64,000 bases of DNA, taken from Flaccisagitta enflata (Eukaryota). The DNA lies in contig OZ231126.1 of the NCBI GenBank assembly GCA_965153355.1, forward strand, positions 16,616,001 through 16,680,000. Direction: 5' to 3'. This document shows, piece after piece, positions 1,990 to 33,800 of this stretch. Every line of letters starts with the position of its first letter. Position 1 is the first letter of the stretch. The translations under genes were made by a program, and so were the position numbers. A model generated the notes under the pieces. That model had not been told where the DNA came from and made no database searches. It worked only from the letters and a program-made list of their open reading frames with translations.

Positions 1990-2076
<87 letters not shown>

Positions 2077-2506: not shown

Positions 2507-2567
<61 letters not shown>

Positions 2568-2997
2568 CAGAGATACATTCTGTTTCAGAGATATAGATAC
2601 ATCGTTTTACAGCTGAATGATGCTGCGTCTAATCATATAAAGAGATGGTTATTTACTATAAAGTCTTTTCTTTTCTCTTGCTGATGTTATTTTGCTTTCA
2701 TGTTTTGATTAACGTGCGTTTATGTTTTATAAGGCTTTGTGCGTCCATTCTACATTAAAGAGAGGCATTGGTTTTGTATTTTTCAAAAGGACATGACAAC
2801 TTGTTTTGCACTTAACAGCCTTTTCAAAAGAGAAAAATATATATTTGGAAAAAAATATATATATCTAAAGAAGAGCGTGAAAGAGGCGTTACTTGCAAGA
2901 AGCAAACGACCGGAAATCTGCTAGGTTGTGGCCATCCGACTGAAAAAAGCCAAGGCGACAGCGTGACTGAGTGAGCAACTGACACCCCCTATTCTCT

Positions 2998-3075
<78 letters not shown>

Positions 3076-3344
3076 TCTCTCCTTTTGGCTTTCTACAAGC
3101 TTAATCGACAGAATCGACCTCCGAAAATGAGTCTTAATCAAATTAGTGAAATACTGAGAGAGAGAGAGGGAGAGCAAGCAAAGGAGGAAAGAGTTTTGAA
3201 CTTCTTATAATGTCATTATATCAATCGTCGATCATTTGAGTGACGGACGCGTTTACTTCGTTGAATGAGGTTATAGGGGTAGTTAAAAAATGAGGATGGA
3301 TTTATGCGCATTCTGTATGAAGGGACAGGGAACAAACAAGAAAG

Positions 3345-3383
<39 letters not shown>

Positions 3384-9937: not shown

Positions 9938-10805
9938 ATGAAAAAATTGAAGAATGAGAGAATGAAAGAATGAAAGAATGAAAGAATTAAGATTGAAGGT
10001 ATGAAGTAATGAGTAAAGATTTAAAAAAAGGAAAAAAGAAAGAAAAAGAGATAGAAAGAAAGAAAGAAAAAAAGAAAAAAAGAAAAAAAGAAAGAGAAAA
10101 AAAAGAAAGAAAGAGAAAAAGAAAGAAAGAAAGAAAGAAAGAAAGAATTGGATATTTTGCGCGGTTTTTAGTTGCGCCATAGCACCTCTTTAAGAGGCTC
10201 TGTCTGTCGGTTGGTCAGTTAGCCGTCATGCTCGAGTTGAAAATCTCTAAAAGAAGCAAAATTCACTGGAAATGATTCAGAAATATGCTAGGATGATTTT
10301 TAGATGCGCCATAGCATCTCTATAAGAGGCTCCGTCCGTTCGTCCATCTGTTGGTCATGCTCGAATGTAAAATTGCTGAAAATGTTTGAAATCAATTGAA
10401 AACTCATTTCGTTCATCATTGATGATACTCGTCATTTCATTCATTAAAGTATTCAGCTATGGTCAGGTCTGATAGAGCTGGGGATGGGTCATATAGGTCT
10501 GGTGATAGGTCGGACAGGTCTGGGGATAGGTCTGATAGAGCTGGTGATAGGTCTGACAGAACTTGGATAGGCCTGATAGAGCTCGGGATAGGTCTGATAG
10601 AGCTAGAGATAGGTCTAATAGAGCTAGGGATAGGTCTGAGGGTGCTAGGGATAGGTCTAAGAAATAATAATGTCCGGCGCACTGTCTTGGCCCGTGTATC
10701 CGGCCTTGTTAACCTTTGCATCACCAAGCAAGCAGACAACTGATCAACCTAGTGATGAGCGTGGATGCTCATGTCGCTCATGAGTTGCTTCAAAGGGGAA
10801 GGGTC

Positions 10806-10876
<71 letters not shown>

Positions 10877-11523
10877 GGCGTACGCGCGTACTCATTGGAA
10901 TGATGAACGCTTACGCTTACGCTTACGAGTCCACAGAAATTGAGGGAACGCTTACAATTACACTTACGAGTACAGCCAAAAAAGGCGAGTACTACGCGTC
11001 CGCGTCCGCGTACGATTACGCCATCACTGGTTCTAAGCTTTCCCCAAATACTAATTTACATATTTGTTCTGTTTGAAAAAACAGCGGGAAAACCTGTAAA
11101 AATAGTCTGACTGAGCTGATTTTTTTTTTAAAACCATATAAGATTTTTAGCCCAATCTGATGGGCTAGGTTAGAATATTGAAAAATAATGTCCTGATGAT
11201 GTCAAGTCACAAATTGAAGAATGAGAAAAACTAATATATTCAAGCAATAAAACAACCTTTAATTAGTATAGATCTTCATTTTTCATAAAGGTGTAAATCA
11301 AAGAAAATTAAGATATCTAAAATCTATCCTCCAGTCTAGGTCGTCTTTGCTCTCGTTGTAATGTATATACGATGAATTGCAGCGCCATATGGGACTCAAT
11401 GGTTTTGGGGGTGCCACCTCCAATTTGTATCACAACAACTTCTTTGTGTCCCAATTTATTTAACAAGTGATTTGTGTTTCTCTGTATGTATAGACAATGA
11501 TTTTTAGCTCATATCAATAAAAA

Positions 11524-11587
<64 letters not shown>

Positions 11588-13282
11588 CTCTCTCTCTTAG
11601 GGGGTGTGTGTCCCAACAAGGGGCCGCCATGGCGGCCCCGGCGGCCCCTTGCCATACGTCCCTGATGAATTGCTGCACTCGTCACATGTTAGGACTTTGA
11701 TTCCTGCCTTTTTAGACGAGCGATCGTGACTCAAGTGGTCTGTAGGTCGGTTGGTCCGTAGGTAGTGGCAGGTAAATAAAAATGACTATGTAAAACATAA
11801 TGTATAGATAAGAATAGGTAATTACAGGTTATTATTTTTCTCTCTGAGAGGTCATACGGATGATCTTCGATTTCCAATGGGCGTCATGAAAAATAAACAC
11901 CTCCATCCATCGCTTGCCAAACTGAGTTGACTACAAATTGGCCGTTTATTCGGCCTTGTTTCTTAATTGCTGTAAAATACGGAAGTGGATTTTTGAAAGA
12001 AAAGAGAAAATGGCGATGGCCCCTTGAATCATACTTTACTACCTAGGAAGTAATTTTTGCACCAAAAAAAGAAGCAGTTCATTTTATGATTTGATGTGTA
12101 CAAAGATATTTTCAAGCTATACAAAATACACGGTTAGACTTTCCTTTTGAGCAATTAGCACTTACATTCTTCAAGGCAATTGATCGTTACAAGGTTTTAA
12201 AGTGACACTTACCCAATTTCTCCCCTCCCCCATTAAAAGGTGCGGAAATAGGGAAAGATTAAACGAAAGAAACAAAAAAGAAAGTAATACTTATAAACAG
12301 AAGATTTTAAACTTTTGGTAGTTATAAAAGATAGTATTTGATCACTACAGCACTATTTCAACTAAATTATTCTACCATATCTACTCTCTGTGGGGTGGAA
12401 AATCAAGTGATTATCCAATTGGCCAAAAAAAAAAAATCAAAGACCAGGGGGTGAAAAAACCAAAAGCTATTTAACTTTATGCAGTGTATATTTTGCACCC
12501 CTTAAAATTTCACAACTTTTAAACAGGGGTGTATATAGTTGAGCAGCTTTTGATTTTATTCCCCCCCCCCTGCCTTTGATTTTCTTCCCCGCGACGCGTC
12601 GCGTCGTATTACAAAATGTTTGATTTTCTTCCCTCAAAGCTATAAACCAGTATATTTTAGGTTTAAATAGTGTTTAATTGTGTTGTAGTAATTGTATTTT
12701 ATGTTTTGGTACTGCCAAAAGTGTTAGATCTTCAAAAATTTTCTTTTTTCTTTTTTTCAAACTTTTGATTTTCTTCCCCATCTCCGAACCCTTTGATTTT
12801 ATTCCCCCCCACCGGGGGGGGGGAATACTCAACTTTATACACCCCTGCTTTTATAATACCGTGTTCCATTACATGCGTGAAGCGAAATTTTGGGTCACTC
12901 TCCTTCAAATTTAATAAGATTCCGCGAGACAGATTTTTAAATGGGCACAACTTACCGGGACCGGTGATATCCACAAACTCTTTGGCCGAAGCTTTGTAGA
13001 CCTCGATGTATCTTTGACCCATATGATGTTTGTGCCTCTTCACTGCCAAGTCCCTTTGTTGTGAGTTTTCCAATTTAACCAACGCTTCACCGTTTCTTCT
13101 ACCTTGCGAGCTCAAGCACAGGACGACGCCGCCCCTATAATGATCAAAACCAATTTAAAAAAAAGTTAATGTAAAACTACATGTATTTTTAAACGAAGGT
13201 CCTTAATTGAATGGACCGGTGTTTGGAAAACGCATGACCCCTAATTAACTCAATTAGCGATTGCTTAAGAAACGATAATGGA

Positions 13283-13347
<65 letters not shown>

Positions 13348-13677
13348 TAGACATACAGGCTGACTGATATTGTGAGAATGAGCGAGAGTGTCAAGCAGAG
13401 AAACAGAGACTGACAGTTCGACAGATTAACAATCAGACAGATGAACTGATGTACATAAAGGCAGGATAAACGGCTACCCTAGTCGCGTGCGGGTGGGCAG
13501 GGGCAGTGATGGAGAAGGTCACTGGGGCATTTGGGCAGGCGCAGTGAGCTCAAAACGCTCAAAACGCCGAAAAAGTAAAATGGGGACCGACCGACCAACC
13601 GACCGACCAACAGACCGACGGAAGGACGGGCAAAACGGGGTGTAGAGTCGACTAAAAATAGATAATCAGAAAGACAG

Positions 13678-13769
<92 letters not shown>

Positions 13770-15525
13770 GAGGATGGAGGCGCTAATTGAAGAATTATTC
13801 TTGAGTCGGTCCATTTATCAAGCTGTGTTTAGGACGTTGGCATTTTGGCCGACTAATTAAACTTTTATTGTTCAATTTTGTCACCAACTTTTATCATGAT
13901 GTTGAAAAATAAATTACGACATCGTGAATTCTTCCATTCCGTTTCATACAAGGTCAACAAATAGATTTAACATTGTCTATTAGACTTTTTACTGCTCTAG
14001 GAAAAGCGTATTTTCAAGGAGTGCCAGAGGGCAGGGAAGGGGCACAATATCTGTTAGGTGTTTTACCTCCATTTTCCTCTTTCATACTTCTTGTACTTCT
14101 TGTAGGATTGAAAAAAAAAAAAACATAAGATTTGTCTTATCTACAGGATGATAAAAAATTGAGTCCACTAGGGGCCCAAAAGGGTCTGATATGACGCTAA
14201 TTTACCAAACTTTAGTTTTTTTCCCCACCTCAGTCCAACCAAAATTATCCAACAGGTTCATTTTCACTATAATGGAACCTGTATCGTGATGTAGATAGAT
14301 GGCGATGAGAGCCCTTTGGCTTTGGCATTGGGTACCCAACCACTGGGAACCAGGGATCCCATATTGACCATTTATGTACTTTAAAAACTCCCTTCATTTA
14401 TGAAAATTAAGAAATTTAATGGATCTCATTTGATATATCCCTCAGAACAACCACAAAATGGGGAATACAGTTTTATCAAATGCGCAACTAACTAACAAAC
14501 CAACCGAGAGACAGACGCGACCTTAAATAGATATGAACAAATGAAAACTTTAAAAAGTCACATTAAAAACATTTGAGTGTCCTTTTTTAGTCGCGTGCAC
14601 GCGACTCTACACCTTGCTCTGTCGGTCGGTCCGTCCCTCCGTCCGTCCCTCCGTAACATTTTTAAAATTTTGATTGTTTTTTACGTTTTTTAACATTTTT
14701 TAACATTTTTTAACATTTTTTAACATTTTTTAACATTTTACCTTTTTTAACATTTTCAAGTTTTTTTTAACATTTTTTAGAATTTTTAACATTTTTCAAC
14801 TTTTTCAACTTTTTTTAACATTTTTTAACATATTTCAACATTCTTTAACAGTTTTTAACATATCTTAATATTCTTAACATTTAAACATGTTTTTGCTCTT
14901 TTGTTTTTCATTTCCAGACGCATGCGACTGTTGCCCTCTTGGGCTTGTTTTTCTTTTCTTCTTGTCGTGGCTTTCCCTAGCGCATAATGAAATGGCGCTG
15001 GCAATGTTCCGGATGCGTTTTTAGTCGCAGACACGCGACTCTACACCTTGCCGTGTCGGTCGTTAGGTCACATTTTTGAATTTCGAGCGGTTTCGGCATT
15101 ACAGCTTCAGCCCAACCGTCCGCGACTGGATTGCTGTGTTTCCGGCCTTGTTTTAGTTCATTTGAACCCGATTTGGTTTTCTGATATGATATTTTGATGT
15201 TCCATGACTTGGTCCGTCAATCCGTCCATCATTCTTGGCTTTTGACTTTTATTTGTTTTTCTTATTAGTAATGATATTATTAGTAATAATATTACCTTTC
15301 CACGTTGAGTCCACGAAAGAAGTTGGCGATATCTTGGTCCGTGCACTGCCAAGGTAATCCTCGAGCTCTCACAACGCAATTGTCATCCACCGGATCATCT
15401 TGGCTGAATCGATGTGAAGACGAACAATAGTAATTTTGAATACGTTTGGTTGCAACCTATATGTCTACATATTGTGTGTGCGTGTGCGTGTGTTCGTGTG
15501 CTCGTGTGCGTGTGCGTGTGTGTGT

Positions 15526-15623
<98 letters not shown>

Positions 15624-15780
15624 TTAACACAACAAGTAAAAATACAAAATGAAAGGTACATAAATTTAATTTTAGAAAATGAAATTATATAAAATTTAGA
15701 TATAAACATAAGATTAAATACTTACCACATTCCAGATTCCAATCTATCCCAAATTAGCTCTCGTTTTCCGAGGACGTGAC
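718..15780 (-). CDS. fus (ESRP1/2): Fusilli / epithelial splicing regulatory protein (ESRP family), partial: internal exons 15780-15726, 15403-15296, 13134-12956, 818-718
   Basis: GT-AG exons with compatible phases give [148 protein letters not shown], i.e. qRRM1 and the start of qRRM2 of ESRP/fusilli. The 5' and 3' exons are not in this window segment. Confidence 0.93.
2073..3002. repeat. Direct tandem duplication, 491-bp period, bounded by (CT)n microsatellites
   Basis: Identical 61-aa ORFs at 2248 and 2739 (offset 491); unique sequence 2073-2511 is repeated at 2564-3002. Confidence 0.95.
4010..9476 (+). mobile_element. DINE/HINE-like non-autonomous element with internal 10-bp satellites, interrupted by nested insertions
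   Basis: 5' GCGACTCTACAACCCGCTTTGTCC followed by (GGTC)n; (AGTCATTYTA)n and (ATAGGTAATT)n arrays; 3' CGCACGCGACTTATAGGTGTTGGCCTTATTTT, which matches the reversed end at ~58608-58640. Confidence 0.6.
4691..6147 (-). mobile_element. Internally deleted pogo/Tigger (Tc1/mariner) DNA transposon
   Basis: TA|CAGTGGG...CCCACTG|TA termini with TA TSD. Minus-strand remnants read [21 protein letters not shown] (~5650-5710; pogo DDE C-terminal motif) and QSIITNFF (~5095-5120; PIP-box-like tail typical of Tigger transposases). Confidence 0.75.
9679..11029. mobile_element. hAT-type MITE carrying nested repeats
   Basis: TIR CAGCGATGGC / GCCATCACTG; 8-bp TSD GTTCTAAG at 9671-9678 and 11030-11037; subterminal TTACG repeats. 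Confidence 0.75.
11380..11664. mobile_element. hAT-type MITE
   Basis: TIR CAGCGCCATATGG / CCATACGTCCCTG; 8-bp TSD ATGAATTG on both sides. Confidence 0.75.
12524..12847. mobile_element. hAT-type MITE, CAGGGGTGTATA family
   Basis: TIR CAGGGGTGTATATAGTTGAG / CTCAACTTTATACACCCCTG; TSD CTTTTAAA/CTTTTATA; related copies at 34769-35066 and ~63750-end. Confidence 0.75.
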
Positions 15781-15803
15781 CTGAGTTGATAAAAAGATGA
15801 GAG

Positions 15804-15883
<80 letters not shown>

Positions 15884-16532
15884 ACACACACACGACTATG
15901 ACAGCGCGTCATTTGTAATTAGGAAAGCGTCGCGGCTGGATTGTTCCAGTTGAAATTTCACTTCACGATACAGCCGCTTTACTTGTGTATAGCCATGGAC
16001 GTAAAACTATGAGACTTTCCTGCGCCTTGTTTTGATCAACAAAGACTTATCAGAACAAGGCCATCACCCGGAAATCACGTGCGGCATGTGCGCTTTTGAA
16101 ATCGGTGTACCACTCAAAATTCATACCTCATAATTCATAAATTACTAAAAAAGCCTCAAAATTCTATAGCAGAAATGGAATGGACCAACCATCCAGATAT
16201 CCCAGGGTCCTGTAGAGGCCTATACACCCTATACAAAATGTAGGGGCTCGGGCTTCAGGAAGGCCCGGAGGGCCCTTCAATTATCACAGAAATGAAAAGG
16301 AAAGAAAAAGAAAAAGGGATAAAAAAGAAAAAAAGTTTTTTTCTATTTTTGTTACAGATCAAACTACTTAGTTCAACACTTGGATTTTCTTTTTCAAAAA
16401 ATTTGTACAGAGACTGAGAAGTAATCCATGTAAAAACTACAAGTGCTATTATTACAGCCGGCAATCACGCTAAAACTAGAGGGGCCCGGATTTTTGGATT
16501 GTACTATCTTCGCCAAAAGAAACGCGACACCC

Positions 16533-16542
16533 NNNNNNNNNN
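16533..16542. other. Assembly gap (10 N)
   Basis: N run; truncates Gypsy pol inside RNase H; sequence left of the gap is not pol-like. Confidence 0.99.
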
Positions 16543-18960
16543 CCGGCGCTGCGTTGACGTCAGCTTTTTCGATCCATAGCTGATGACTTTCTCCTTGCCG
16601 TCGACTTTCTGCGTGAGCACGTAGCCAATGGCAGATAGGGACGCGTCAGACTTGACGATGAATGGCTTGGAGAAATCAGGGTAGTTCATCACCTGATCGG
16701 ACGTCAGAATGCGCTTTAGAGTCTCGAAAGCTATTTGATGTTCGTCGTTCCAGACCCATTCCGCATCATCGTGCGTTAAGTCCGTTAAGGGCTGCGCGAT
16801 TTTGGAGTAGTCTTTGACGAATTGGCGATAGTAACCCGTTAAGCCAAGAAATGTCTTCAGCTTCTTGGAGTTGGTTGGCGGGTTCCAGGCTCTGATTTTG
16901 TCAATATTTGCAGGGTCTGGTGACATCCCGTCTTTCGACAGCAAATGCCCCAGGCAGACAACAGAGTCCTGTGCAATACTGCACTTCGCCGGATTAAGCT
17001 TGAGTCCAGCACGCTCAAGAGCTGTGAGGACTTGGTCGAGATAGAAGATGTGGTCTTCCATTGTGTTGGACGCGACGAGGATGTCGTCGAGATAACTAAG
17101 AACATGCTGCGGCGGAAGGCCTCGCAGCACGAGTTGCATGAGAGCGCAGAGGGTGCTTGGCGAATTTTTGGCACCCATTGGGGCAACCAAATATTCCAAG
17201 TGCATCGATTCCGTGGAAAATGCAAAGTACTTGCGATCCTCGGGATGCACCGGAATTTGCCAGAATCCTTTCGTCAAGTCGAGAGACGTAAAGAATTCTG
17301 GCTTGTCAAGCTTTTGCAAGGAGTCCTCGATCCGCGGGAGAGGGTACACTACCTTGTTGCACTGCTCGTTGATTTTGCGGAAGTCGGTTAAGAAGCGCCA
17401 GCCACCAAGTTTCTTTTTCGCCAGAAGGATGGGCGCCGAGAAGGGGCTGGTGCTGTGAGCGACCAAGCCATCGGCGATCATTTCGTAGGCTTGGTTATCG
17501 ATGACTTCGCGCATTTCAGGTCTTGTTCGGTAAGGAGGTACGTTGATTGGAGTCATGTCTCTATCCTTGAGATTGGCGCGGTAATGGATCAAGTGAGTTT
17601 TTCCATAGTCGCGGTCATGGCGAGAGAATGCTTTCGCATGATCAATCTCCAGAAATTGTTTGAGACGAGCTTTGTAGGGGAGAGCTCTTTTAGAAAGCTT
17701 TGTCCAATCCAATTTGAGCCTTTTTGCCCCAGGCGGGATACTCATATCCGGCGACGATGGGAGGTCAGGCTGCTGATTGGAGGGGGGAGCTGGAGGAGGA
17801 GCTGGAGGAGGATCGGGAGGAGGAGGATCTGTTGGAGGGGGGGTATCTTGAGGAGAGCAAGACGCAGCGGGACGCTTTGCCTGTGCTGAGGGGGGAGGGG
17901 GGTCACACACGATCTCCTCCAAGTCTTCGTCGTCATCGTCGTCAGCATTGGCGTTGAAATCGACGGCTTCACTATCAGCGCTGGGCGGGGCTTTAGCTTC
18001 TTCTGAAGGATCGGCTCCATAATGACAGAACATTTCGGTTCTGACTACGCGCGATGTCAAGTCGTCCTCGGTGTAGAACTTGGCGTAGCCGAGCACTCTG
18101 CCACGTTCCATTTTGATTGGATATTTATGAGCGTTGATGACTTCTGTTGGGAAGAGTCCATCTTTCACTATGCTGACGCATCGATTCGCCCACAATTCGC
18201 TGGATGCATTGTTGAATGGCTGGGTTTCGACAATGTTGGATATGCATTTTATGTCGTTGAGCATCGCTTCGACCTTGCACACCGTTTTGCTGTTTGCGGG
18301 CACCACGAAGTCTTCAAGGACCCTGTAGTAACATCCGCTGATTTCGGACGTGTCCTTGATGAGGGGGGTTGAATCGCCGTACCTTGGGAACTCTACAGTT
18401 CCTTTGTCAGGATCGAGAAAGGCACCACAGCTTGAGAACCAATCCCAGCCCAAGAAGATGTCTTGGACCAGTCCTCGAACCACACGAAAGTTTGTTGAAT
18501 GGAACCGTCCATTAATACGAAACGCAACATTCACGATCCCGAGGGTCATGACTTTGGATCCGTTGATGGCGGTGCCACGGGTGGTGAGGGGCCTGTAGGG
18601 ACGAGTTTGCAAGTGTGGAGATCGCAGGAAGAAATCTTCGGACATGGCGCTTTTCGTGCAGCCAGTGTCGCCAATGACGCGTTGTTGAATTCTACGCTTA
18701 TTCACCTTATTCACACGAATATGTACATAGAACTCGGCTTTATACCGAGGCTTCGGATCAGACGGGGGACCGCGGGAAGGTGGAGGTTTAGGAGGAGGAG
18801 ACGGAGAGGTATCGGGCGAGGAGTTGGGATTTTTGCGGGTTTTGCGGTTTTTGCGGGTTTTCGCGCGGGAAGGACGGCTATCTACAGGGCTATTTACATT
18901 CGGGGCCTCATTTTCAATTCCGACATCAACGGGCCCCGGGGCTGAGTCGGGTTCTAGTTT
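16543..18960 (-). CDS. pol: Gypsy Pol (protease, RT, N-terminal RNase H), predicted to be expressed by -1 frameshift; truncated by gap
   Basis: Frame open from the slippery site through IGDTGC (protease), PPYR...SPFSAPILL...WRFLTDFRKIN...YPLPRIED...LDLTKGFWQI...PMGAKNSP...YLDDILV (RT) and PFIVKSDAS (RNase H). Confidence 0.93.
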
Positions 18961-18963
18961 CCC
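18901..18963 (-). promoter_or_regulatory. -1 programmed ribosomal frameshift signal (G GGA AAC + H-type pseudoknot)
   Basis: Heptamer at 18963-18957 directly before the gag stop; 6-nt spacer; stem1 CCGACTCAGC/GTTGA(T)GTCGG; loop CGGGGCC can pair with downstream GGCCCCG; pol is in the -1 frame. Confidence 0.85.
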
Positions 18964-20237
18964 CGACCATAGCCCACGGCACCCTGAGACTCCTCTTCGT
19001 TGGAGTCCTCAGAGTCCTCGTCTGCGGTTTCAATGGCCCGGTATTGGTCGTTCCGATCGGGACGATCGTTCCGACCACGGTTGCCACTGTCGCGGGTATT
19101 GCGGCGGTCGTCGCGAGGCTGGCTACGCTGATCGTTGCGGTCATCGCCGCGTTGGTTCCCATTGTCGCGGCGGTCGTCGTTGCGACGGCCAGGTTGGTTG
19201 TTGCTGCGACGGTCATCATTGCGGCGGTCATCATTGTTGCGGCGCTCACCTCTGTTGTTGCTGTTGGAGCGCGAGTTGTTAGAGCCACGGGACCAGCTGC
19301 GGTTGTTGCGAGAGCCACCCTGGTTTTGGCGACCTTGGTTGTAGCCACTGTTGTTGTTGCGTCCACAATCACCCGACGGGTAGTTGGAGCGAGAATTACT
19401 TTGGTACCCACCACTTTGGCTCCCTTGGCGTTGAGCTCTTTCAAGTGCTTCAATGCGGTCCACCAAGCGGCGGTTGGAAACTGCCAGGTTCTCCAACTGG
19501 GTGGTGATTCCAGCCATCGCAGTTTCGAGGCTGGTAGCGCGATCCGGATGCAGACTGGCGCTGGCAAAGGCGACTCCTTGTGCTGGATCACCGTCGGTCG
19601 CTTCGCCATCGTCGTCGGCGGTGGATAGCTGGTAGCGGAGTGCGACCTCCTTTGCCATTTCCAGCGTACGATTGTTGGCCGGGCAACCCATGTCGATGAT
19701 TCGACGCATCGGCTTTTTGAAGGCGTTGCGGAAGCGGAAGAAGTACTCCCGCGTTTTGAACTCATCCGGCATCTCTTTGTCGTACCGGTTGACGGCTTGG
19801 ACAACACGAGCGGCCAGATTGTGGAACGACTCCTTGCCGTCCCACTTGATGGTGGTGTACTTAGCCTGCCACTTGTAGCGTTCTTGGGGATCAATGAAGA
19901 GCCCAATGAGTTCTTCCTTAAGATCGGGCCAGACCGTGCTCGTCGCTTGGAGGTAGGTCACGTAGGCTGAGGAATGCAGTTTCAGAGGTAGCCACTCCAA
20001 GAAGAGGCTGCGGAGAGTTGGAGTGTCACGCACGTTGGTGGCCAACTTAACTGCCTTTTCAAAAAGTTCCACCCATTGTTCGAAGTCATCTTGACTGGCG
20101 TTGAAATCCCGTACATTGATGCTTGATGCACCTCTTTCCAATCGTGACGGGAAGGCAGGGGCGGCTGCGGCGGCGGCCCTAAGGGGGTCGTTGGGATCCA
20201 TTGCATCATTAGCGCCGTTAGCACCTTGACCTAGCAT
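18954..20237 (-). CDS. gag: Gypsy Gag, 427 aa
   Basis: ATG in AAAATG context; capsid-like DFNASQDDFEQWVELFEKAV...WPDLKEELIGLF...ESFHNLAARV; basic RNDDRR-repeat C-terminus without a CCHC knuckle; directly upstream of pol. Confidence 0.85.
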   Translation of the reverse strand: MLGQGANGANDAMDPNDPLRAAAAAAPAFPSRLERGASSINVRDFNASQDDFEQWVELFEKAVKLATNVRDTPTLRSLFLEWLPLKLHSSAYVTYLQATSTVWPDLKEELIGLFIDPQERYKWQAKYTTIKWDGKESFHNLAARVVQAVNRYDKEMPDEFKTREYFFRFRNAFKKPMRRIIDMGCPANNRTLEMAKEVALRYQLSTADDDGEATDGDPAQGVAFASASLHPDRATSLETAMAGITTQLENLAVSNRRLVDRIEALERAQRQGSQSGGYQSNSRSNYPSGDCGRNNNSGYNQGRQNQGGSRNNRSWSRGSNNSRSNSNNRGERRNNDDRRNDDRRSNNQPGRRNDDRRDNGNQRGDDRNDQRSQPRDDRRNTRDSGNRGRNDRPDRNDQYRAIETADEDSEDSNEEESQGAVGYGRGN

Positions 20238-20388
20238 TTTGCTGTGTTGGATGTGCGAAAATTACAAAAGATTTCACCGAGGATATCACACAAACCGTTC
20301 GAATGAAAGGGGATCCAGACTGAGCTTGGGCCGTCTCAGTTACTGAATAATGGGGGGGGAAAAGGTTTGACAAAAATACTCGGCGGAT

Positions 20389-20700
20389 TTAAGCGAGGGA
20401 GAAGAGGCTACGCAAGCCACGTAGCGCGCTGTTGTCGGATTCCACAACGTAGTCACAGTAGTTAAGCAAATTCGAATTGGCTCGAACGGCGTATCTGAGA
20501 GCTCGCACTTCCAATTCAGTAGTAGACCACTGTTGACGCTGTTGCTGGGTTAGAGTTTTAGAACCAAACGAAACAATGCGTTCCTCTCCTTCGATTCTGG
20601 CGGTCAACACAAAGCTGAAGGCGGTGCGGGTGGTGTGAATTTTGACAATTACTGGGAAGGCACTGGGCATGGCCCTTGGGTTGATGTTTTGGCGTGACAT
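20389..20700 (-). CDS. Stand-alone RNase H-like ORF (103 aa from ATG), probably catalytically inactive, in the Gypsy leader
   Basis: PVIVKIHTTRTAFSFVLTARIEGEERIVSFGSKTLTQQQRQ aligns without gaps to Pol PFIVKSDASLSAIGYVLTQKVDGKEKVISYGSKKLTSTQRR (18/41 identical by hand count), then continues WSTTELE...VVESDNSAL. Confidence 0.75.
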   Translation of the reverse strand: MSRQNINPRAMPSAFPVIVKIHTTRTAFSFVLTARIEGEERIVSFGSKTLTQQQRQQWSTTELEVRALRYAVRANSNLLNYCDYVVESDNSALRGLRSLFSLA

Positions 20701-20852
20701 ATTGATGACGAAAGAGTCCGATTTAGATTTCACTATTCGATGTTACGAAACCAATTACACAAAAAGGCGGAAGGCTGTCGGGATAAAGACACACGCGGAA
20801 AGGCACAATGGTGATGCGTGGTTACAATGGCAAAGATTACTTACGACGTAGT

Positions 20853-20981
20853 TCACAGCCAGTTTTCCATCGCCATCTTCTTGGTTTCTTTGGACTTCTT
20901 CTTTTCGCCTTTTTCGTATGCAGCTTTGACGGCTTCTTTAAACGCTTTGCGCCATTCTTCGAAGTCGTCTTTTCCGTCCAT
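20853..20981 (-). CDS. 42-aa mini-Gag ORF (copy of capsid N-terminal helices) in the Gypsy leader
   Basis: Hand translation: MDGKDDFEEWRKAFKEAVKAAYEKGEKKKSKETKKMAMENWL*. DDFEEWRKAFKEAVKAA matches Gag DDFEQWVELFEKAVKLA (10/17); start context ACAATGG. Below the ORF-track length cutoff. Confidence 0.65.
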   Translation of the reverse strand: MDGKDDFEEWRKAFKEAVKAAYEKGEKKKSKETKKMAMENWL

Positions 20982-21793
20982 TGTTAATAAGCTGCCTTAC
21001 CTCTAGATTGCACTTGTGGAGGTATCGTGAATAGACGGAATTGTCGTGATAATTAGAAAAAGTGGGGTTTATGCGTCATTGAATAAGGGGGGGATCGTCA
21101 TAAAATGTCCGTAAGAACGGGTCGAATGAGAAGCTAAATTCTGTTAGAGAAAAACGTGGCTTTAAATGATGATACGGTATGCCAGTCTCATCGCCAAAAG
21201 AGAAAGAGGAAGAACAGATGGGTAGCAATTCCAAAGAGGGGGCTTACAGACCGTGGGCTGATCCGACTACTTCGGCCTGTCAGACACTGTCAACCTAGCA
21301 ACAATGCCCTTTCTCTTCGTCGGGAGAGCACTAAACAGCAGAAAGCAAGTCCAGACTGTGGAAAGCTGGGAAAGGGGGAGAGCCTAGGATCGAGGGGGGG
21401 GCAGTCCGTGAATGCAGAGGCAGGCTTACACACTCGAACTGGACATCTGCTGCCACGAACAATGAAGTTCCCAGATGTGCGCGACACAACCGAAGGGGGA
21501 GGAGGGGAAACTGGGATCAGAGGAATATGCGGGGGGAGTGGGACCACAACCACGTCACTTCCAACACAGTTTCCACACCAGCCTTCGGGACGAAAACTGG
21601 AGTGAAAGGAAGACTGTCCAAACAGCTGGGCAGAGGGGACCAAACGGGGGGTTGGGACAGCTGTTGAACACCCAAGTAGTGATCCTGCTGACAGCACCCT
21701 CAGAACCAATCTAAAGTTGAGACCGGCGGGGCAGTACCTACAAAGAGGGGTAGGGACTTACAGGATGGGGGGCCACTCAAGGGGTAAGAGAGG

Positions 21794-21803
21794 CGATGCA
21801 CCA
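21794..21803 (-). promoter_or_regulatory. Primer-binding site, probably tRNA-Gly(GCC)
   Basis: TGGTGCATCG one base after the LTR end; complementary to the ...CGATGCACCA 3' end I recall for arthropod tRNA-Gly(GCC). Confidence 0.6.
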
Positions 21804-21804
21804 A

Positions 21805-22176
21805 TATAAGTGGCTATTCTGGGAGGATTAGCAACTTACGTGAATGCATGAGTCCTTGGCATTCTGTATCATCGGCGGGCTTATCGTCATTAGTTCTATG
21901 CCCATGCTAGAGTCAATTCAGTATAAGTGTCTGTCATCTAGAGAGGCAAATAGAACAGGCTATGATTATATGCACGGACGATAGTTAGTATAGTTAGGAT
22001 GGATACTTAGTAGGATCATGCAGTTATTAGATTATCCGTATATCATTAAAGCCACTAATGCTAGGCTGAATCTATAACTGAAGATAGCAAAAGGGAATGA
22101 AGGCATGCAAAGTAATATGCGTGGCATGCTAAATAATATCAAGCGTGAATGATTAGAAGCATGAAAAGCCATTACA
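21805..22176 (-). repeat. 5' LTR (372 bp)
   Basis: Starts TGTAATGGC and ends GCCACTTATA (imperfect terminal inverted repeat), followed by the PBS; no second LTR is available for confirmation. Confidence 0.7.
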
Positions 22177-22227
22177 GGGAAGCAGCTAATAGCGGGATTA
22201 AGCATGCACAAAATGTACTCCTACACC

Positions 22228-22940
22228 ATCTTTCTGCCTTTCCATCTTTCTGCCTTTCCATCTTTCTGCCTTTCCATCTTTCTGCCTTTCTATAATTCTG
22301 CCTTTCTATCTTTCTGCCTTTCCATCTTTCTGCCTTTCCATCTTTCTGCCTTTCCATCTTTCTGCCTTTCTATCTTTCTGCCTTTCTATCTTTCTGCCTT
22401 TCTATCTTTCTGCCTTTCTATCTTTCTGTCTTTCTATCTTTCTGTCTTTCTATCTTTCTGTCTTTCTATCTTTCTGTCTTTCTATCTTTCTATCTGTCTT
22501 TCTATCTTTCTATCTGTCTTTCTATCTCTGCCTTTCTATCTTTCTGCCTTTCTATCTTTCTATCTTTCTGCCTTTCTATCTTTCTGCCTTTCTATCTTTC
22601 TGCCTTTCTATCTTTCTGCCTTTCTATCTTTCTGTCTTTCTTACTTTGTCCTTTAGTTTTTCAACTTTCATGCCATTCCATTTTTCTTCTGCCTTTTTAT
22701 TTTTCTGCCTTTTCCGCACATTTCTGCATCCCACATCCTTCTGCCTTTGTTTTTCTACCTTAATCTCTATTTCTATCTGCCTTTCTATCTATCTGCCTTT
22801 CTATCTGCCTTTCTATCTTTCTGCCTTTCTATCTTTCTGCCTTTCTATCTTTCTGCCTTTCTATCTTTCTGCCTTTTGTTTCTGTGATCAGCCTTTCTAT
22901 CGTTCTGCCTTTCTATCTTTCTGCCTATCTTCCTTTGTTC
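22228..22940. repeat. Pyrimidine-rich 16-bp tandem repeat (TTTCYATCTTTCTGCC)n
   Basis: Visible periodicity; produces spurious LSFCLSIFLPFY ORFs. Confidence 0.9.
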
Positions 22941-23062
22941 TATAATTTTTCATGGCATTCCATTTTTCTGCCTTTCCCGCATCTTTCTGCTTCTCCATCT
23001 GACTATCTCTTCATCGGAGGCTGTAGTTGTTTGGTCGTTAATTTGCCTCGATTCTTGGCTAG

Positions 23063-24820: not shown

Positions 24821-27800
24821 ATGCCTTCTTTGACGGGACCCTCGAAGAAGGAGAACGAACTGAAGGCGCATTTGGATGGAAATAAACTCGATTTGTCGCT
24901 TATGCAACACGATGCCATCACTCCCGCGCTCGTTCGGCAGATCGCCGCTCTTCCGAAAGGTGAATACGATTAGGAAGGTGGAAACTGCGTCGATTCACGC
25001 TCTCTGAATCTTTTCTTCAGGCCTGGCCCAGCCCTACCTGCTTTTCGCCTTCCATGGGAATTACACAATTTTTTCATTTTCTTGTCAATTTTCCATCCTA
25101 TTCAATGGGTATCCTTTATTTTTTCATTATTTGCATTTGTATTTGTCAATTTCCCATTATATTCAATGGGAATTCCACATTTTTTTTTCACTTTCTCGTC
25201 AATTTTCCATATTTATCCAATGGGGATTACAATTTTTTTCCATTTTTTTGTCAATTTTCCATGCTGTTCAATGGAAATTGTTGAAATCCTCGTTTTTTGT
25301 CGATTTTCCATGAAATTGAGCTTGATTACGATGAAAACGAGGAGAATGAAAGGAAGGGAAGGGAAGAAGAAAAACAGGACTCGGGAGGCTCCGACCATGA
25401 AAAGGAGGAGGAAACCGGGGAAGAGGAGGAAACTGGGGAAGAGGAGGAGGAGGAGGAACCGGCGGAACCGGCGACCGACGGGAAAAAGAAAAAGAAGAAC
25501 AGGAGGCGAAACCAGGAGAGACAAAGGAAGAAAGAAAAAGAGGGGAAACAGAAAGAGAAAAGGGTCGATGAGATGGAAATGGGGGCCGAAGACCCAACGA
25601 GACCGGCTAATCGGTCTCCTGGAAGGCATGAGTCCCTCCAGTTTCTGGCGAGACACCGAGCGGAGGTCCAGAGGAGAAAGGGATGGACGGAGGAAGAAAT
25701 TGAGGAGGATCGAAAGAAAAGGGAAGAGGAGGAAAGGATAGAGGACGATAGGAGAGAGAAAGAGGCGAAAAAGGAGAGAAGAAAAGATAGAAAGAAAAAG
25801 GAGGAAGAAGAAAAAATGGCAGAACAAGAAAGAAGAGAAAGAGAAGCATATGAGATGCTTGCAGAAAAGAAAAAGGAAATATGGGAAAAGAGAACCCAGA
25901 GCAGACAGGAAGTGGCGAATCTTGAACGCGAATTGGAACAATGCAAAAAAAATGCGTGGGAGACTAGGCACCGCGGCAATGAGATGAGACGGCCTTGGTC
26001 CTCCTCCCCAAAACCGTCGTCATGGGAACAACGCGAGAGAGGTAACAACAACAACAACAACCACGACAGTGTCCATCGTGGCGGCACCCATCATGGCGGC
26101 AAAACCAACCATGGCGGCAACACCTACAGTGGCGGCAACACCTACAGTGGCGGCAACACCTACAGTGGCGGCAACACCTTTCGTGGCGGCAACACCTTTC
26201 GTGGCGGCAACACCTTTCGTGGCGGCAACACCTTTCGTGGTGGCAACACCTACCGCGGTGGCAACACCTACCGCGGCGGCGGCGGTCCTCTCCGTGGCGG
26301 CACCGCGCCGCATCACCGTTCATCACTCTCGATCGAAGAAACTCAGAGCCAGAGACACCGGTCCCGTTCGCCAACTAGAGACTTTCATGGGCCACTCAAT
26401 CAACAACAAAACTCCGGAAGAGGCCGCTCCTCACGCCAGGAACGACACCAAAACGAGCGGCAACAACCTTTCCAACAACGCGATGATCGGCATCAGCAGC
26501 AGCAGCAACAGCAACAGCAAGAAGCGACGGGGACATCGATGGCGCAAGAAATGCGCCAATTCATGGCGGAAATACGGGACGCCTTGGGAACTAGGCGTCA
26601 AGAAGGACAAACAAGGAAGGAGTGAATTTAATTTCGGAGGATGTAACTGTGAATGGGACTGTCCTTTCGTTTGGGGCGGAAATACGAACTGATGTGATGG
26701 TTTAGTTCTTGGGAAGTAGATGTAGCAATTGTTTGTCTCCAAGTCAACAGGCGATTCGCCTTACTTTATTGGAGTACTTGAATTTGAATTTGAATTTATT
26801 CAATGGTGCAATGGTGCTCTCACATCCAATTGGGAAAAACTTCCCCCTGTGTTCTACAGGGCATCTACCCCTTCGGGGCCGCTGCCCTATTAACCATCAC
26901 CCACATAGACGAGCATACAAAGCAGGGCAACGGGTATCGCTGACCTCATATTGCTCTAGGGCGACTGGTTACTTTTCGGCGTTTTTGAGCTTTTTGGGCA
27001 GCGGCCCCAAAGGGCCGATGTCCTGTAGGACACAGGGCACACTGTCTCGAGCGGTTCTTATATAGCGAAAAAAAGGCAGTATTTTTCTCATTGAATACAA
27101 CCATTGAACAGTGTCAATACAAGTGTTCTTGAAAATTGACAAAATGCAAACTTCCCATTGAATGATATGAAAAATTAACGGAAAAGCGAAAAATGTATGT
27201 TTCTTATTGAATAACATGGAAAATTGATGAAAACTGAAAATAATGTTGAATTCCTATTGAATAATATGGCAAATTGACAAGAAATGAAAAACAAGGCCAA
27301 GAGATGTCCAATAGATGCGTCCTCTTTAGAAGTACGATATTATCATATAAATTACCAAGATATTACGATATAAAGATTCAGAGATAAAGAGAGAAAATAT
27401 TAACTGATTCCTCTCTCCCCTCCCCACCCCCCCCCCCCACAGAAATAAGAGATATAAGAGACATATTGGAGAAATAAGAGACATATAGGAGACAAAAGAG
27501 ACAAAAGAGATGAAAGATACAAAAGAAATATAAGAGACATGAAGAGAAATATAGAGAAAACCTTAAAAATCGCGTTTTAAAATTTTCGCGTTCCGGACAT
27601 TCAGACAGACAGACAGACATTCAGACAGACCAAGGGACACACCCTCTTATAGAGATGCGAGGACGCATTTAAAAAACAAAGTTGCCATTGAATATTATGG
27701 ATAACTGCTCAGGACGTATGGAAATTTACCCCGTGTCCTACAGGACATCGGCCCTTTGGGGCCGCTACTCTGCTCTTACTCCACTTCTTTTGCTAATCTC

Positions 27801-30800
27801 TCCAAGCAGGGCATCGGGATGACTTGTTGAACCTACTGCTCCCGCCAAAATGCTCAAGTGACCTTCTCCAGCACTGCTCCTGCCCACCCGCACGCGACTT
27901 GGGTAGCCGTTTATCTGGCCTTTCCCTTCCATCCTATCAACCTATCTATCTTTCTTCCTCTTCCTACCTCCTTCCTCTTCCTTCCTCCCTTCCTCCCTTT
28001 CACTCCCTCCACCCTTACCTTACCAGAAACTTGCTTTCTTCCCCCCCCCCCTTTTGTTTCACTCGCCTCCTCTTTTCAGTTTTCACCCTCTTCCATCTTT
28101 CGTTTAACTCTTTACTTCACTTTATTTCCTTTTTAAGTGCGTCCTCGCACTTCTAAAAGAGGTCATGTCCGTCGGTCGGTCGGTTGGTTGGTTGGTTGGT
28201 TGGTCGGTCGGTCGGTCAGACAAACGTTTGAAATGCGCAAAATGGCTGATTCTGACGTATTTCTTCATTCCTATCACCTTTCATGCCTTACCACATTCAT
28301 ATTCATTCATTCATTCGTTCATATATTCATTCATTCATCAAAAACGTTCATTCACAAAATCTTACACTCAATAAAGGCCTTCAAAAGGCCTTAAAACTGT
28401 CTGAAATTCTTAAGAACTATCATCTAGGATGTCTTGGCTACCTAAAACAACATCAGACTAAATCATTTGAATGCAAAATTTAGATAAAAGTAGGTAAACG
28501 CCCTAATTCTTTGAGGCGCAAAAATGTCGCTAGAGAGTAGAAAAACGGAATGGAACCATTTTGGATCTTCCCTTGCAAAGCTCCGAAAACGGTTAAAAAT
28601 GTTTATATGAACCAAGGAAAGTATGATTCTGAATGCTGACGACACGAGCTATCGATTGGTGTAAGTTTTGAAAGCCAACTATGAGAACAAGATATTGTTT
28701 TTCCTCTTTTCTTGCTTTCCTGACTTGTTACGGCGATATGCGAATATGAACTTTGATGCATATGGGCTCAATAGATGCAGTTTTGTTTTTTCTTTCAAAT
28801 GAGACCTTTCCGAAACTTGAGATCAGCCCCACGCGGCCTCACGAATGATATTAAGAAGACTCTATCTGCTCGATTTTCCGTAGTTTTCTTTCGCGATGTT
28901 TGGTTAACCGCATAAGCTACTTCACTTCACATGAATGAAATAATCAACTGTGCGGTTCCGTCTGTAGACTCGCGATTCCGTCAGTAGACTCGCGATTCCG
29001 TCTGTAGACTCGCGATTCCATCTGTAGACTCGCAATTCCGTCTGTAGACTCGCGATTCCATCTGTAGACTCGCGATTCCGTCTGTAGACTCGCAATTCCG
29101 TCTGTAGACTCGCAATTCCGTCTGTAGACTCGCGATTCCGTCTGTAGACTCGGGATTCCGTCTGTAGACTCGCGATTCCGTCTGTAGACTCGCGATTCCA
29201 TCTGTAGACTCGCGATTCCGTCTGTAGACTCGCGATTCCATCTGTAGACTCGCGATTCCGTCTGTAGACTCGCGATTCCATCTGTAGACTTGCCATTCTG
29301 TCTGTAGACCTGCCATTCTGTCTGTAGACTCGCGAGTCCATCTGTAGACTCGCGATTCCGTCTGTAGACTCGCAATTCCGTCTGTAGACTTGCGATTCTG
29401 TCTGTAGACTCGCAATTCCGTCTGTAGACTCGCGATTCCGTCTGTAGATTCGTCATTCCGTCTGAAGGCTCACCATTCCGTCTGTAGACTCGCGATTCCG
29501 TCTGTAGACTCACGATTCCATCTGTACACTCGCGATTCTGTCTGTAGACTCGCGATTCCATCTGTAGACTCGCGATTCCGTCTGTAGACTTGCGATTCCA
29601 TCTGTAGACTCGCGATTACGTATGTAGACTCGCGATTACGTCTGTAGACTCTTGATTACATCTGTAGACTCTTGATTCCGTCTGTAGACTCGCGATTCCG
29701 TCTGTAGACTCGCGATTCCATCTGTAGACTCGCCATTCCGTCTGTAGACTCGCCATTCCGTCTGTAGACTTGCCATTCCGTCTGTAGACTCGCCATTCTG
29801 TCTGTAGACTCGCGAGTCCATCTGTAGACTCGCGAGTCCATCTGTAGACTCGCGATTCCGTCTGTAGATTCGTCATTCCGTCTGAAGGCTCGCCATTCCG
29901 TCTGTAGACTCGCCATTCTGTCTGTAGATTCGTCATTCCATCTGTAGACTCGCCATTACGTCTGTAGATTTGTCTCTCCGTCTGTAGACTCGCCACTCCG
30001 TCTGTAGACTCGCAATTCCGTCTGTAGACTCGCAATTCCGTCTGTAGACTCGCGATTCTGTCTGTAGACTCGCGATTCTGTCTGTAGACTCGCGTTCCGT
30101 CTGTAGACTCGTGTTCCGTCTGTAGACTTGCGATTCCGTCTGTAGACTCGCGATTCGGTGCATAGATTCGGGATTCCGTGCATAGAATCGCGATTCCATC
30201 TGTAGACTCGCGATTCCGTCTGTAGACTCGCGATTCTGTCTGTAGACTCGCGGTTTTTTGTTGTTTTCATAAGTACATACAACATGCGTGGTAGGTTCTT
30301 GGCACTTTTTAAGCATTTTTGACCATTTTTATAAGTATTTCAAGGGACCAACTGCGTAAAACAAAGGTGCCAAAAATCTTGCTAATTTCTCCCCTTAAAA
30401 ATTCATGAAATCAACATGGTCAATTTTGTTTTTTTGGGCCAAAAATGTCTGAAACCTTCAAAAACCCCACCCCAGAGACACTTTCGGGTGAAAAAGAGCC
30501 ATGAATGGTAACTGACATGAATTTGGAAGAATTAGGCCTTATACCTAATAAAAGTCATTTTTTTGGCAAAAATCAAGTATTTTTTAGCATATTTGGCATT
30601 TTTTCTGTTCACATAGCTTCCAAAACTTTAGAAAATACCTGAAACGTGTAGGGATACCTAATATACAACTGCTTTTACCATTTTAAGCTAGTTTTGGTTA
30701 ATATTTTAAAGATAAGAGCAAAAAAATAGCAAAAAAACAGCAAATTAAGCTGTTTTTTAATATTTTTTCTGCCTTAAAATTGTTCTAGCTATTTTAAAAA

Positions 30801-33800
30801 GCCTGTAAACTATAAAAAGTGTGTGGAAACAGTTGGATTACATGTAGTTTCAACTTTTTTAGCAATTTTAATGAAATATCTATCACTTAAAAGTTTAAAA
30901 AATGACTTGGAATCCGTAAATTCAGGCTTTTTTGTATTTTCAAGCTTCATCATGATCAAATTGTTTCTTAAGATGATTGGTTTTATATCAACGGACCGAT
31001 GGACGGAAGGACGGATGAACGGACGGATGGACAAAGCTTCTTATAGAGATGCGTGGACGCATCTAGAAATGCTATGGGATGGAGTGACCAACCTGCCGAC
31101 CAACACAGCAAGGTATAAGGTTGCGTGTCCGTGATTAAGACTACAAAATATTGAAATATATGTAAAAACATTTGTAATAGTTAGATATCTATGAAAATAT
31201 ATATAATATATATCTTTAAATAAACAAAATAATTAAGAAACAATTTGATCATGATGAAGCTTGAAAATACCAAAATAAATCTTGAAAGAGTATGGGTCCG
31301 CAACTGGGGTCAATCGGCATTGTCAAATGGCGTTGTCAAACGGCGTTGTCAAACGGCGTTGTCAAACGGCGTTGTCAAATGGCGTTGTCAAATGGCGTTG
31401 TCAAACGACATTGTCAAACGGCGTTGTCAAACGGCGTTGTCAAACGGCGTTGTCAAATGGCGTTGTCAAATGGCGTTGGCAAACGGCGTTGTCATGCGTC
31501 TTTGTCATGCGGCGTTGTCATACGGCGTTGTCATACGGCGTTGTCATACGGCGTTGTCATACGGCGTTGTCATACGGCGTTGTCATACGGCGTTGTCATA
31601 CGGCGTTGTCATACGGCGTTGTCATACGGCGTTGTCATACGGTGTTGTAAAACAGCGTTGTAATACGGCGTTGTAAAACGGCGTAATACGGCGTTGTCAA
31701 ACGGCGTTGTCAAACAACGTTGTCAAACGACATTGTCAAACGACATTGTCAAACGACATTGTCAAACAACATTGTCAACAAACATTGTCAAACGACATTG
31801 TCAAATGACATTGTCAAACGACATTGTCAAACGACATTGTCAAATGGCATTGTCAAACGGCTTTGTCAAACGGCATTGGCAACAGCATTGTCAAACAGCA
31901 CTTATTGGCCTTCACTAGGCCTTGTTTCTTTCCTCAAGCCTCTTCCCTTTCCTTTCCGCTTTCCATTAAAGTGAAGCCTTCAAACAATTCATCCAAAGTT
32001 TTCCTCCTCCAGCCACCGAAGTTGACCTTTCGTGCAACCGTCTCCAAACCTTGGCACCTCACTTCTGTTCCCTGACTCAAATTACTCATCTCGACTTGTC
32101 CAAAAATGCCATATCGGAATTACCGGAAGAAATTGGACTGATGACGGGTACATTATCTTGCCTTGGTTTTTTATTTTACTCGTTTCATAGTTGCAGTGAA
32201 TTGGTAAAAATAGTTGGTCGCAATTGCCATTGAATACGGTGTCTAGAATAGTTCAAGTTTAATCTAAAAAGCAACAACGGGTTTCATTTTCAACTCTTGA
32301 TATTTTCAACTCATTTCAGGATTACGCCACCTGGATTTAAGCGGGAACAAGATCTTGTCATTGCCGCTTTCGTTTGGAGAACTCGAAAATCTTCGTTGGT
32401 TGGATTTGAAAGACAACCCCTTGGAACCGCATTTGGGAGCGGTTGCTGGCGATTGTCTCGACAAGAAACAGTGCACAAACGCCGCTAAACAGGTAAAAAA
32501 AGTGGGGCTTGCGATATGAATTAATGTGCAATGGCAAATTTAAGATCCTCAAAAAATCAAAATCATCCCTTGTAGGTGTGCGTTTACATGAGGACTCTTG
32601 CAGAAGCCCACGAAAAGGCGATAGAGAAAAAGAAAAAGAAGAAAGAAAACTTGGACGAAAAGAAGCAGAGGAAAAAGGTACATAACTTGTATATCACGTA
32701 ATCAATCATGAGTATTCACTCTTGATGTGGGACCACCTCTAGTAACCGCCATCTGATAATTGATCTTGTCCGCTTGTATGAACTTCTTGTCAACCCCCCC
32801 TCTCCTCACCTTCCTTTCATGGGCTTCCTTAATCAGGAGGAAAAAGAAAAAGCAGTCAAGGAAGAACAAAAAGCTGCAAAGAAGATGGAAAAGGAAAGGA
32901 AACGGAAGGAATACGAGGAGAGGAGATTAAGAGAGCAGAAGGAAGTCGAAAATGTCGGTCCAATGGGTGACAAGAGGGACACAGGTAAGTCGATCTTTTC
33001 TCATCCATGTTTCTATTTCTGTCCAGTTTTCTGTGCCTCGCCTTTTCTCTCTGCCTGCAACTGCATTCTCTATCTGATTCTCCTTACCTTGCTCTCTGTT
33101 GAGCGGCGGCTCTTCTCTCCATTTGCCTCCCTTTCTGTTAATCTCCCTGCCTGTCAATCAAAAAGAGTACTTCCTTTTTGGGCAGCGGCCCCGGAGGGGT
33201 CGATGACCTATGGTTCCACACAGGGCAATTTTTCCGATCTAATGTCAGTGTCCCCCCCCCAAAGCCCCTAATCAGGCCTCTCAGACCTCAAAGCAGGCCT
33301 CTCAGACCTCAAATCAGGCCCCTCAGACCCCAAATCAGGCCTCTCAGACCCCAAATCAGGCTTTTCAGACCCCAACTCAGGTCTCTCAGACCTCAAAGCA
33401 GGCCTCTAAGACCTGAAATCCGGCCTATTAGACCCCAAATCAGGCCTCTCAGACCCCAAATCAGGCTTTTCAGACCCCAAATCAGGCTTTTCAAACCCCA
33501 ACTCAGGTCTCTCAGACCTCAAAGCAGGCCTCTAAGACCTCAAATCCGGCCTATTAGACCCCAAATCAGGCCTCTCAGACCTCAAATCAGGCTTCTCAGA
33601 CCCCCAATCAGGCCTCTCGGATTCAAAATCAGGCCTCTCGGACTCAAAATCAGGCCTCCCAGACCCCAAATCAGGCCTCTCAAGCTACAAATCCAGCATC
33701 TGGGATCCCAAATCAGGCCTCTCAGACCCCAAATCAGGCCTCTTAGAGATCTTTTCAGGCTTCTTAAGCCTTAACTCAGGCCTCCCAGACCTATTATCAG

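Follow-up and report, generated by a model that had tools for sequence, protein, structure and literature searches.

A truncated RNase H-derived reading frame, probably conserved as a protein, upstream of gag in a Ty3/gypsy-type LTR retrotransposon lineage

The window, by which is meant the whole 64-kb stretch of DNA analysed here, contains a stand-alone open reading frame (ORF) on the minus strand that is derived from a retrotransposon RNase H domain and situated upstream of gag (20389-20700, 103 amino acids, coordinates including the stop codon TAA). The ORF is probably a conserved protein encoded by the element, and it is somewhat favoured that it serves as an accessory gene of the window's Ty3/gypsy-type LTR retrotransposon lineage. 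The original prediction described a pseudo-enzyme. This stands in so far as the ORF is separate, originates from RNase H and lacks two of the four catalytic carboxylates; that the protein is inactive is itself read from the missing residues.

Comparison with the element's own Pol protein by tblastn reproduces the ungapped alignment with the RNase H domain that had been reported from the first inspection of the sequence, with 18 of 41 residues identical (43.9%, E 3e-9) up to the point where the alignment terminates at the assembly gap of 10 N (16533-16542). Full sibling Pol proteins are 34-42% identical to the ORF over 78-86 residues. The search against RNase H profiles that had been proposed as a check gives a match to Pfam PF17917 (RT_RNaseH) with an E value of 1.9e-10 and 41.2 bits, above the cut-off of 24.8. 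This match spans residues 16-97 of the ORF, corresponding to positions 5-86 of 105 in the profile. PF17919 (RT_RNaseH_2) is matched as well (E 3.8e-7, 30.5 bits, cut-off 29.8).

The catalytic residues were mapped by aligning the ORF with sibling Pol proteins and by aligning the RNase H of one sibling Pol with 4OL8, the Ty3 RT/RNase H (E 2.4e-11). The residue pattern proposed originally holds against both. The first catalytic Asp (SDAS in Pol) is replaced by His22 (IHTT in the ORF), the Glu (DRE in Pol) is kept as Glu64 (TELE) and the second Asp (TDH in Pol) is kept as Asp89 (SDN). The ORF ends 14 residues past Asp89, well short of the HADADA motif that holds the last Asp in Pol. The DEDD active site is incomplete in that two of its four carboxylates are absent from the ORF, and on these residues the protein should be catalytically inactive and would not cut RNA. 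In the Pol of the family the RNase H is still intact and has all three motifs, DAS, TDH and HADADA.

A model of the protein made with AlphaFold2 and 31 family sequences has a mean pLDDT of 79.8 (about 90 in the core) and a pTM of 0.68. Its elements are strands at residues 17-23, 27-36 and 39-49, a helix at 60-74 and a strand at 84-88, followed by a last helix of low confidence. This arrangement fits an RNase H fold from its N-terminus to about two thirds of its length, namely strands 1-3, helix A, strand 4 and a short helix B. A complete fold of this type has five strands in its sheet and helices A to E; the ORF breaks off behind strand 4 and the short helix, and strand 5 and the last helices are missing from the model.

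Structural matching with Foldseek and VIA-align gives RNase H or connection domains of reverse transcriptases (RTs) as the best matches to the model, with Z values that are middling by the tool's own scale. The values are 10.4 for CaMV RT, 9.1 for residues 444-537 of foamy virus RT, 8.4-8.5 for XMRV/MoMLV RT and 7.6 for residues 345-437 of Ty3 RT chain B (rmsd 2.7 over 86). The first 85-88 residues of cellular RNase H1 match with Z of about 7-7.5 and rmsd of 2.0-2.6. Overall the matched part of the RNase H domains is confined to roughly their first 85-90 residues. No match was found when a profile of the ORF family was compared with PDB sequences at E 0.01. The expectation of a folded domain is supported, for a partial RNase H fold, by the AlphaFold2 model, the structural matches and the Pfam profiles together.

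The ORF lies in front of a gag-pol element on the same strand. Gag (18954-20237, minus strand, 427 amino acids) has its start codon at 20237 and is in a different frame from the ORF. A spacer of 151 bases (20238-20388, minus strand) separates the stop of the ORF from the gag ATG; it has no ATG and includes a 14-base C-run motif at 20344-20357 that recurs at 21080-21093. A leader duplication inferred from this pair of motifs was considered weak, the score being reached in 10 of 300 shuffles. No Pfam family matches gag at E 0.1 and an obvious zinc knuckle is lacking, and its C-terminal third is of low complexity and rich in Arg, Asn and Asp. A metagenome scan with the Pol protein P0084 gave three loci (L001, L002 and L003), and the gag of the window is 44% identical to that of L002 and L003.

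Pol (16543-18645, minus strand) includes the reverse transcriptase and the beginning of RNase H, with matches to Pfam RVT_1 and to the first 70 residues of RT_RNaseH_2. It is 84% identical to the sibling Pol P0020 over 411 aligned residues, in an alignment that reaches just beyond the gap. The gap at 16533-16542 interrupts pol within the RNase H domain, and the window lacks the integrase, the 3' LTR and the remainder of RNase H. Past the gap the sequence is unrelated to the element after about five codons. Several long (CT)n/(GA)n tracts and related microsatellites are found on this far side of the gap (10782-15900).

Upstream of the ORF there is a mini-ORF of 42 amino acids (20853-20981, minus strand) with a weak likeness to the N-terminal part of gag. 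It is 52.6% identical to the gag of the window over 19 amino acids (E 0.002) and 62.5% identical to the gag of L002 and L003 over 16 amino acids. Its start codon has a good context, with A at -3 and G at +4. A GTAAGT directly follows the mini-ORF and a pyrimidine run with CAG is present at about 20335-20357, and an intron around the ORF was considered possible. The region further upstream (20997-22015, minus strand) is likewise repeated in the sequencing runs and presumably includes the leader and 5' LTR. A word beginning with TGGCGA at about 21182-21196 (minus strand) is a candidate primer-binding site; scans for tRNA and Rfam matches gave nothing that pins it down. The sole hint of the upstream limit of the element is a loose end at 22016 (4 contigs, X6), and no second copy of the element or LTR pair was found within the 64-kb window.

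The surroundings are rich in repeats. A tandem array with a 16-base unit (8-base sub-period) in 44 copies adjoins the upstream side of the element at 22228-22930. Contigs from all four sequencing runs pile up on it to an extreme summed depth (X1: about 1.2 million), which marks it as a satellite-like repeat of very high abundance. Two further arrays have a 20-base unit in 65 copies (28952-30252) and a 13-base unit in 45 copies (31309-31896), and both give spurious long ORFs in several frames. An ORF of 350 amino acids on the plus strand (25573-26625) has a part rich in Lys and Glu; it could be either a gene of the host or an artefact of low complexity. Within it, at 26094-26280, an 18-base repeat encodes units of Gly-Gly-Asn-Thr-Tyr/Phe-Arg/Ser.

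The connection between the ORF and gag-pol was followed by placing contigs from four runs on 16543-23000, one of them from organism A and three from marine metagenomes (two studies). In these data the summed depth is high over the whole of 16543 to about 22160, and in the ORF region it is comparable to that of gag and pol. A 258-base contig from the organism A run (X1-7) has a depth of 674 and differs from the window at five positions. The stretch from the end of the ORF into gag (20136-20460) is bridged by X2-16, with 29 other letters and 23 gap letters, and by X6-22, which come from two marine metagenome runs. Further contigs span 20431-20766 and 20543-20902. The 40 contig variants listed, out of 1241, include none within the ORF. 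A joint between 19877 and 20993 was discounted since it has just 25 letters on one side.

These contigs bear on whether an RNase H fragment was mis-joined to gag in a gapped scaffold, a concern raised by the 10-N gap that cuts the element and leaves the rest of it missing. Such an assembly artefact is extremely improbable, because independent contigs of two marine metagenome runs span the junction, the neighbouring stretches are also spanned and the exact protein has been recorded from 4 contigs. The bridging contigs and the repeat-like depth argue both against a mis-join and against a single-copy host gene. A domesticated gene of that kind, or a decoy directed at the host that binds a host factor, such as a sensor or a nuclease of RNA/DNA hybrids, in place of the element's RT, would suit the fact that the relatives of the ORF are all unnamed metagenome proteins. 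This explanation is improbable. Apart from the depth of X1-7 in the organism A run, the host-gene form is contradicted by the intact gag-pol of its own parent family that adjoins the ORF, and by a diverged copy that retains the junction between ORF and gag. None of these observations contradicts the decoy form. That the ORF is probably part of the element is suggested by its position 151 bases upstream of gag on the same strand and by a junction bridged in several contigs including a diverged one. This position upstream of gag is known for the window's own lineage, and it is to this lineage that the proposed accessory role applies.

Relatives of the ORF were collected as called proteins, all of them from ENA, and broken copies are therefore under-counted. 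Besides the contigs with the exact window protein, 41 contigs carry a form of 93 amino acids that is identical from Met11; these contig counts may reflect one locus assembled from many samples. The ORF's own cluster at 90% contains 16 variants with at least 90% identity. A second cluster has 4 variants with 66-69% identity and the same C-terminal end as the window protein. When cluster representatives are searched exhaustively, stand-alone proteins of 78-104 amino acids rank above any Pol (29 matches, E <=0.001). A profile search extends the family to 27 clusters (90% identity) of 55-121 amino acids, mostly 92, which are all stand-alone and reach down to about 35% identity with the window protein.

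The second in-frame ATG of the ORF (Met11, 20668-20670, minus strand) is near the start used by the relatives of 92-93 amino acids and is therefore likely to be the conserved start. The first 10 residues of the ORF are a lineage-specific extension. The stop is similarly placed across the family, 12-14 residues past Asp89 in most of the 30 aligned representatives and 6-17 residues past it in all those where the end is present. The core is nearly free of indels in these representatives, and Gly38 and Gln54 are invariant. At the position of the first catalytic Asp there are 9 sequences with His, 20 with Tyr and none with Asp, one sequence being without the position. Glu64 is retained without exception (29 of 29), as is Asp89 (28 of 28). 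These two invariant residues beside His or Tyr suggest a binding site preserved for a metal or a partner rather than plain decay.

In neutral walks from the window codons to 40% protein identity, made with substitutions only, 122 of 2000 (about 6%) remain free of stop codons, and indels would lower this fraction further. Full-length clusters down to about 35% identity, combined with the few walks that stay open, lead us to take the frame as selected, for which there is good, though indirect, evidence. It had been stated that disruption of the ORF in most sibling copies would speak against the prediction; among called proteins, full-length relatives are instead found in 27 clusters.

A competing explanation is that the ORF is a neutral relic, left over from an internally deleted or nested older copy and copied along with a master element, so that its open frame reflects the youth of the family and the calling of open frames alone as proteins. 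The family in the window is indeed young, with only 5 letters in 258 differing in X1-7, and broken variants occur: P0158 is a frameshifted P0198, and a few sequences are short. Neutrality would not be expected to give 27 clusters that share the start region, the stop region and nearly no indels over such divergence, four invariant residues (Gly, Gln, Glu and Asp) or a predicted fold that is confident in the core, and few neutral walks stay open even without indels. A relic is thus unlikely, and a protein maintained by selection is the preferred reading.

The family seems to be abundant in marine plankton DNA, as it occurs in sequencing runs of organism A and in those of marine metagenomes (10 studies), mostly as small shares. 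The ESM Atlas contains RNase H-like clusters, including one of 92 amino acids with 72 members. Pattern matches to the ORF family in JGI metagenome contigs (205) and in IMG/VR (66) gave no confirmed member.

A maximum-likelihood tree was calculated from 96 shared columns and 76 rows. The rows were 50 Pol domains, with the family's Pol proteins sampled at every second one, and 26 short ORFs, four very short or broken ones having been omitted. The comparison with Pol RNase H domains, another of the checks proposed at the outset, places all 26 short ORFs in a single clade (bootstrap/SH-aLRT 100/100). This clade is nested within the Pol RNase H clade of the element family itself (100/98), and more distant Pol proteins fall outside. 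A quick tree of all 149 rows agrees, with the exact sister of the short-ORF clade being ambiguous.

The stem of the short ORFs has 0.78 changes per column and their internal branches are much longer than those of Pol. The two main sub-clades of short ORFs are far more diverged than the family's Pol domains are. The longer branches indicate that the ORF has evolved several times faster than the parent Pol RNase H. Such a rate fits a conflict with a partner and also a relaxed constraint. Proteins in conflict with a partner typically evolve fast while their frame is kept, which is in line with a host decoy; the long branches within the clade are likewise what a relic would give.

The tree points to a single origin, by which part of the element's own Pol RNase H domain was duplicated to the region upstream of gag. 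The probable route is an internally deleted copy of the element that became fused upstream of a full gag-pol, presumably by template switching. An internally deleted copy is the probable source because the gag-like scrap at 20853-20981 is situated directly upstream of the ORF. Derivatives of this type exist. One is P0162, a relative of 166 amino acids from JGI that has an internal deletion and joins the N-terminal part of gag to the RT-connection/RNase H region; both its Asp positions are changed, to Gly and Asn. It may represent the type of deletion derivative from which the upstream module stems. The resemblance to debris of a deleted copy, and the existence of gag-RNase H deletion derivatives, also count in favour of a relic.

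The three loci from the metagenome scan give some indication of how widely the ORF is distributed. L001 is a more distant relative with a Pol that is 45% identical over 706 aligned residues, and it has neither an RNase H ORF upstream of gag nor an LTR pair. L002 and L003 reach less than 170 bases upstream of gag. The absence of the ORF from L001 implies that the gene marks a sub-lineage and is dispensable for the wider family. On the JGI contig of L001 an open frame of 1358 amino acids is present upstream of the element (132-4205, plus strand).

From the first ATG of the ORF to the ATG of gag there is one further ATG, in frame, compared with 5.9 expected, and 48 of 3000 shuffles are as low. 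Counted within the ORF only, out-of-frame ATG codons are not significantly scarce (970 of 3000). The overall scarcity fits leaky scanning to gag from one RNA. The ORF might accordingly be translated off the genomic RNA ahead of gag, with gag being reached by leaky scanning, if the region is a leader as assumed here.

The same arrangement could mean that translation before gag is what matters, for the translation of gag or for RNA packaging, and that the peptide is functionless. The position directly upstream of gag and the scarce ATG codons (1 against 5.9 expected) are in agreement with such a cis-acting upstream ORF, and retro-transcribing elements commonly have long leaders that contain upstream ORFs (PMC5902531). 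A functionless peptide would not be expected to retain a hydrophobic RNase H-like core, the same Glu and Asp throughout and an unchanged length while sequences diverge by about 65%, nor to give a confident predicted fold, and this explanation has little probability.

For a protein that is itself conserved, the proposed action is in trans on the reverse-transcription complex of the element. The dead RNase H-like module would occupy the docking site of the second subunit or the RNA/DNA hybrid. This would tune or limit the cutting by RNase H and may help or restrain transposition. [quoted passage not shown] A free half RNase H retains much of the substrate-facing fold and could therefore compete for the docking site or the hybrid. 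Competition of this kind is put forward tentatively as the mode of action. More speculative is the full scheme, which would make the ORF a novel type of accessory gene of retrotransposons and in which a free-standing, fast-evolving dead half RNase H, duplicated from the element itself, competes in trans for the docking site of the second RT subunit and in this way sets the element's own rate of RNase H cutting or copy number, or interferes with rival sub-lineages. A complex prediction of the ORF with the RT-RNase H part of the sibling Pol P0020 (residues 410-862), made without alignments or controls, had a score of 0.00 and speaks neither for nor against a complex.

LTR retrotransposons with extra ORFs are known already, as are RTs with degenerate RNase H modules. 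What seems to be new is a separate, conserved and truncated RNase H gene that comes from the element's own domain and exists beside an intact Pol RNase H. The full texts of open-access papers and preprints gave no description of an LTR retrotransposon with such an ORF, be it a stand-alone or a truncated RNase H. If the ORF acts on the RT complex, it would constitute a natural experiment on how the second subunit regulates RNase H in Ty3-type RTs, and a present-day counterpart of the way in which the retroviral connection domain arose. The protein is small, apparently foldable according to the prediction, and easily tested.

Shortened versions of an element's own proteins that act on the complex of the full-length protein are represented by Ty1 p22, a truncated Gag, and HIV-1 p51. 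Each comes from the gene of the full-length protein itself, either through internal initiation or through proteolysis. The ORF differs from both in being a separate and diverged gene and in being an RNase H fragment, which neither p22 nor p51 is.

The plant Tat elements with dual RNase H (gRNH and aRNH) resemble the present element in that they belong to a Ty3/gypsy lineage and have two RNase H modules, one of which is degenerate (PMC4408406). The active extra RNase H in Tat is of archaeal type, captured from the host and placed inside pol, and the original copy is the one that degenerates. Here the extra copy is instead a duplicate of the element's own domain, is itself degenerate and forms a separate ORF. 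Tat and Ogre elements also have additional ORFs (eORFs) upstream of gag that are conserved within a lineage and obscure in their role, as is the case here (PMC4408406 and PMC7264820). The upstream eORFs described in the literature consulted have a plant mobile domain, a transposase-28 domain or no known domain, and none is described there as an RNase H fragment.

A further comparison is with the connection domain, or tether, of retroviruses, which descends from an old Ty3/gypsy-type RNase H (PMC4408406 and PMC11363490). Like the ORF, the tether has an RNase H fold from a Ty3/gypsy-type RNase H, has lost catalytic residues and has a non-catalytic role, which for the ORF is the role proposed above. 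Connection domains, those of MoMLV/XMRV and foamy virus RTs, are among the best structural matches of the ORF model. The tether forms an entire domain of the RT chain itself, whereas the ORF is separate, 92-103 amino acids long, situated upstream of gag and ends after helix B. All catalytic residues have degenerated in the tether, whereas the Glu and the second Asp are kept in the ORF. The tether is placed within the RT chain between the thumb and the active RNase H, in contrast to the ORF, and the Pol of this family passes from RT directly to its own RNase H. If the ORF protein does compete in trans with the second RT subunit, it would be a trans version of the process by which an old retroviral RNase H became a connection domain in cis.
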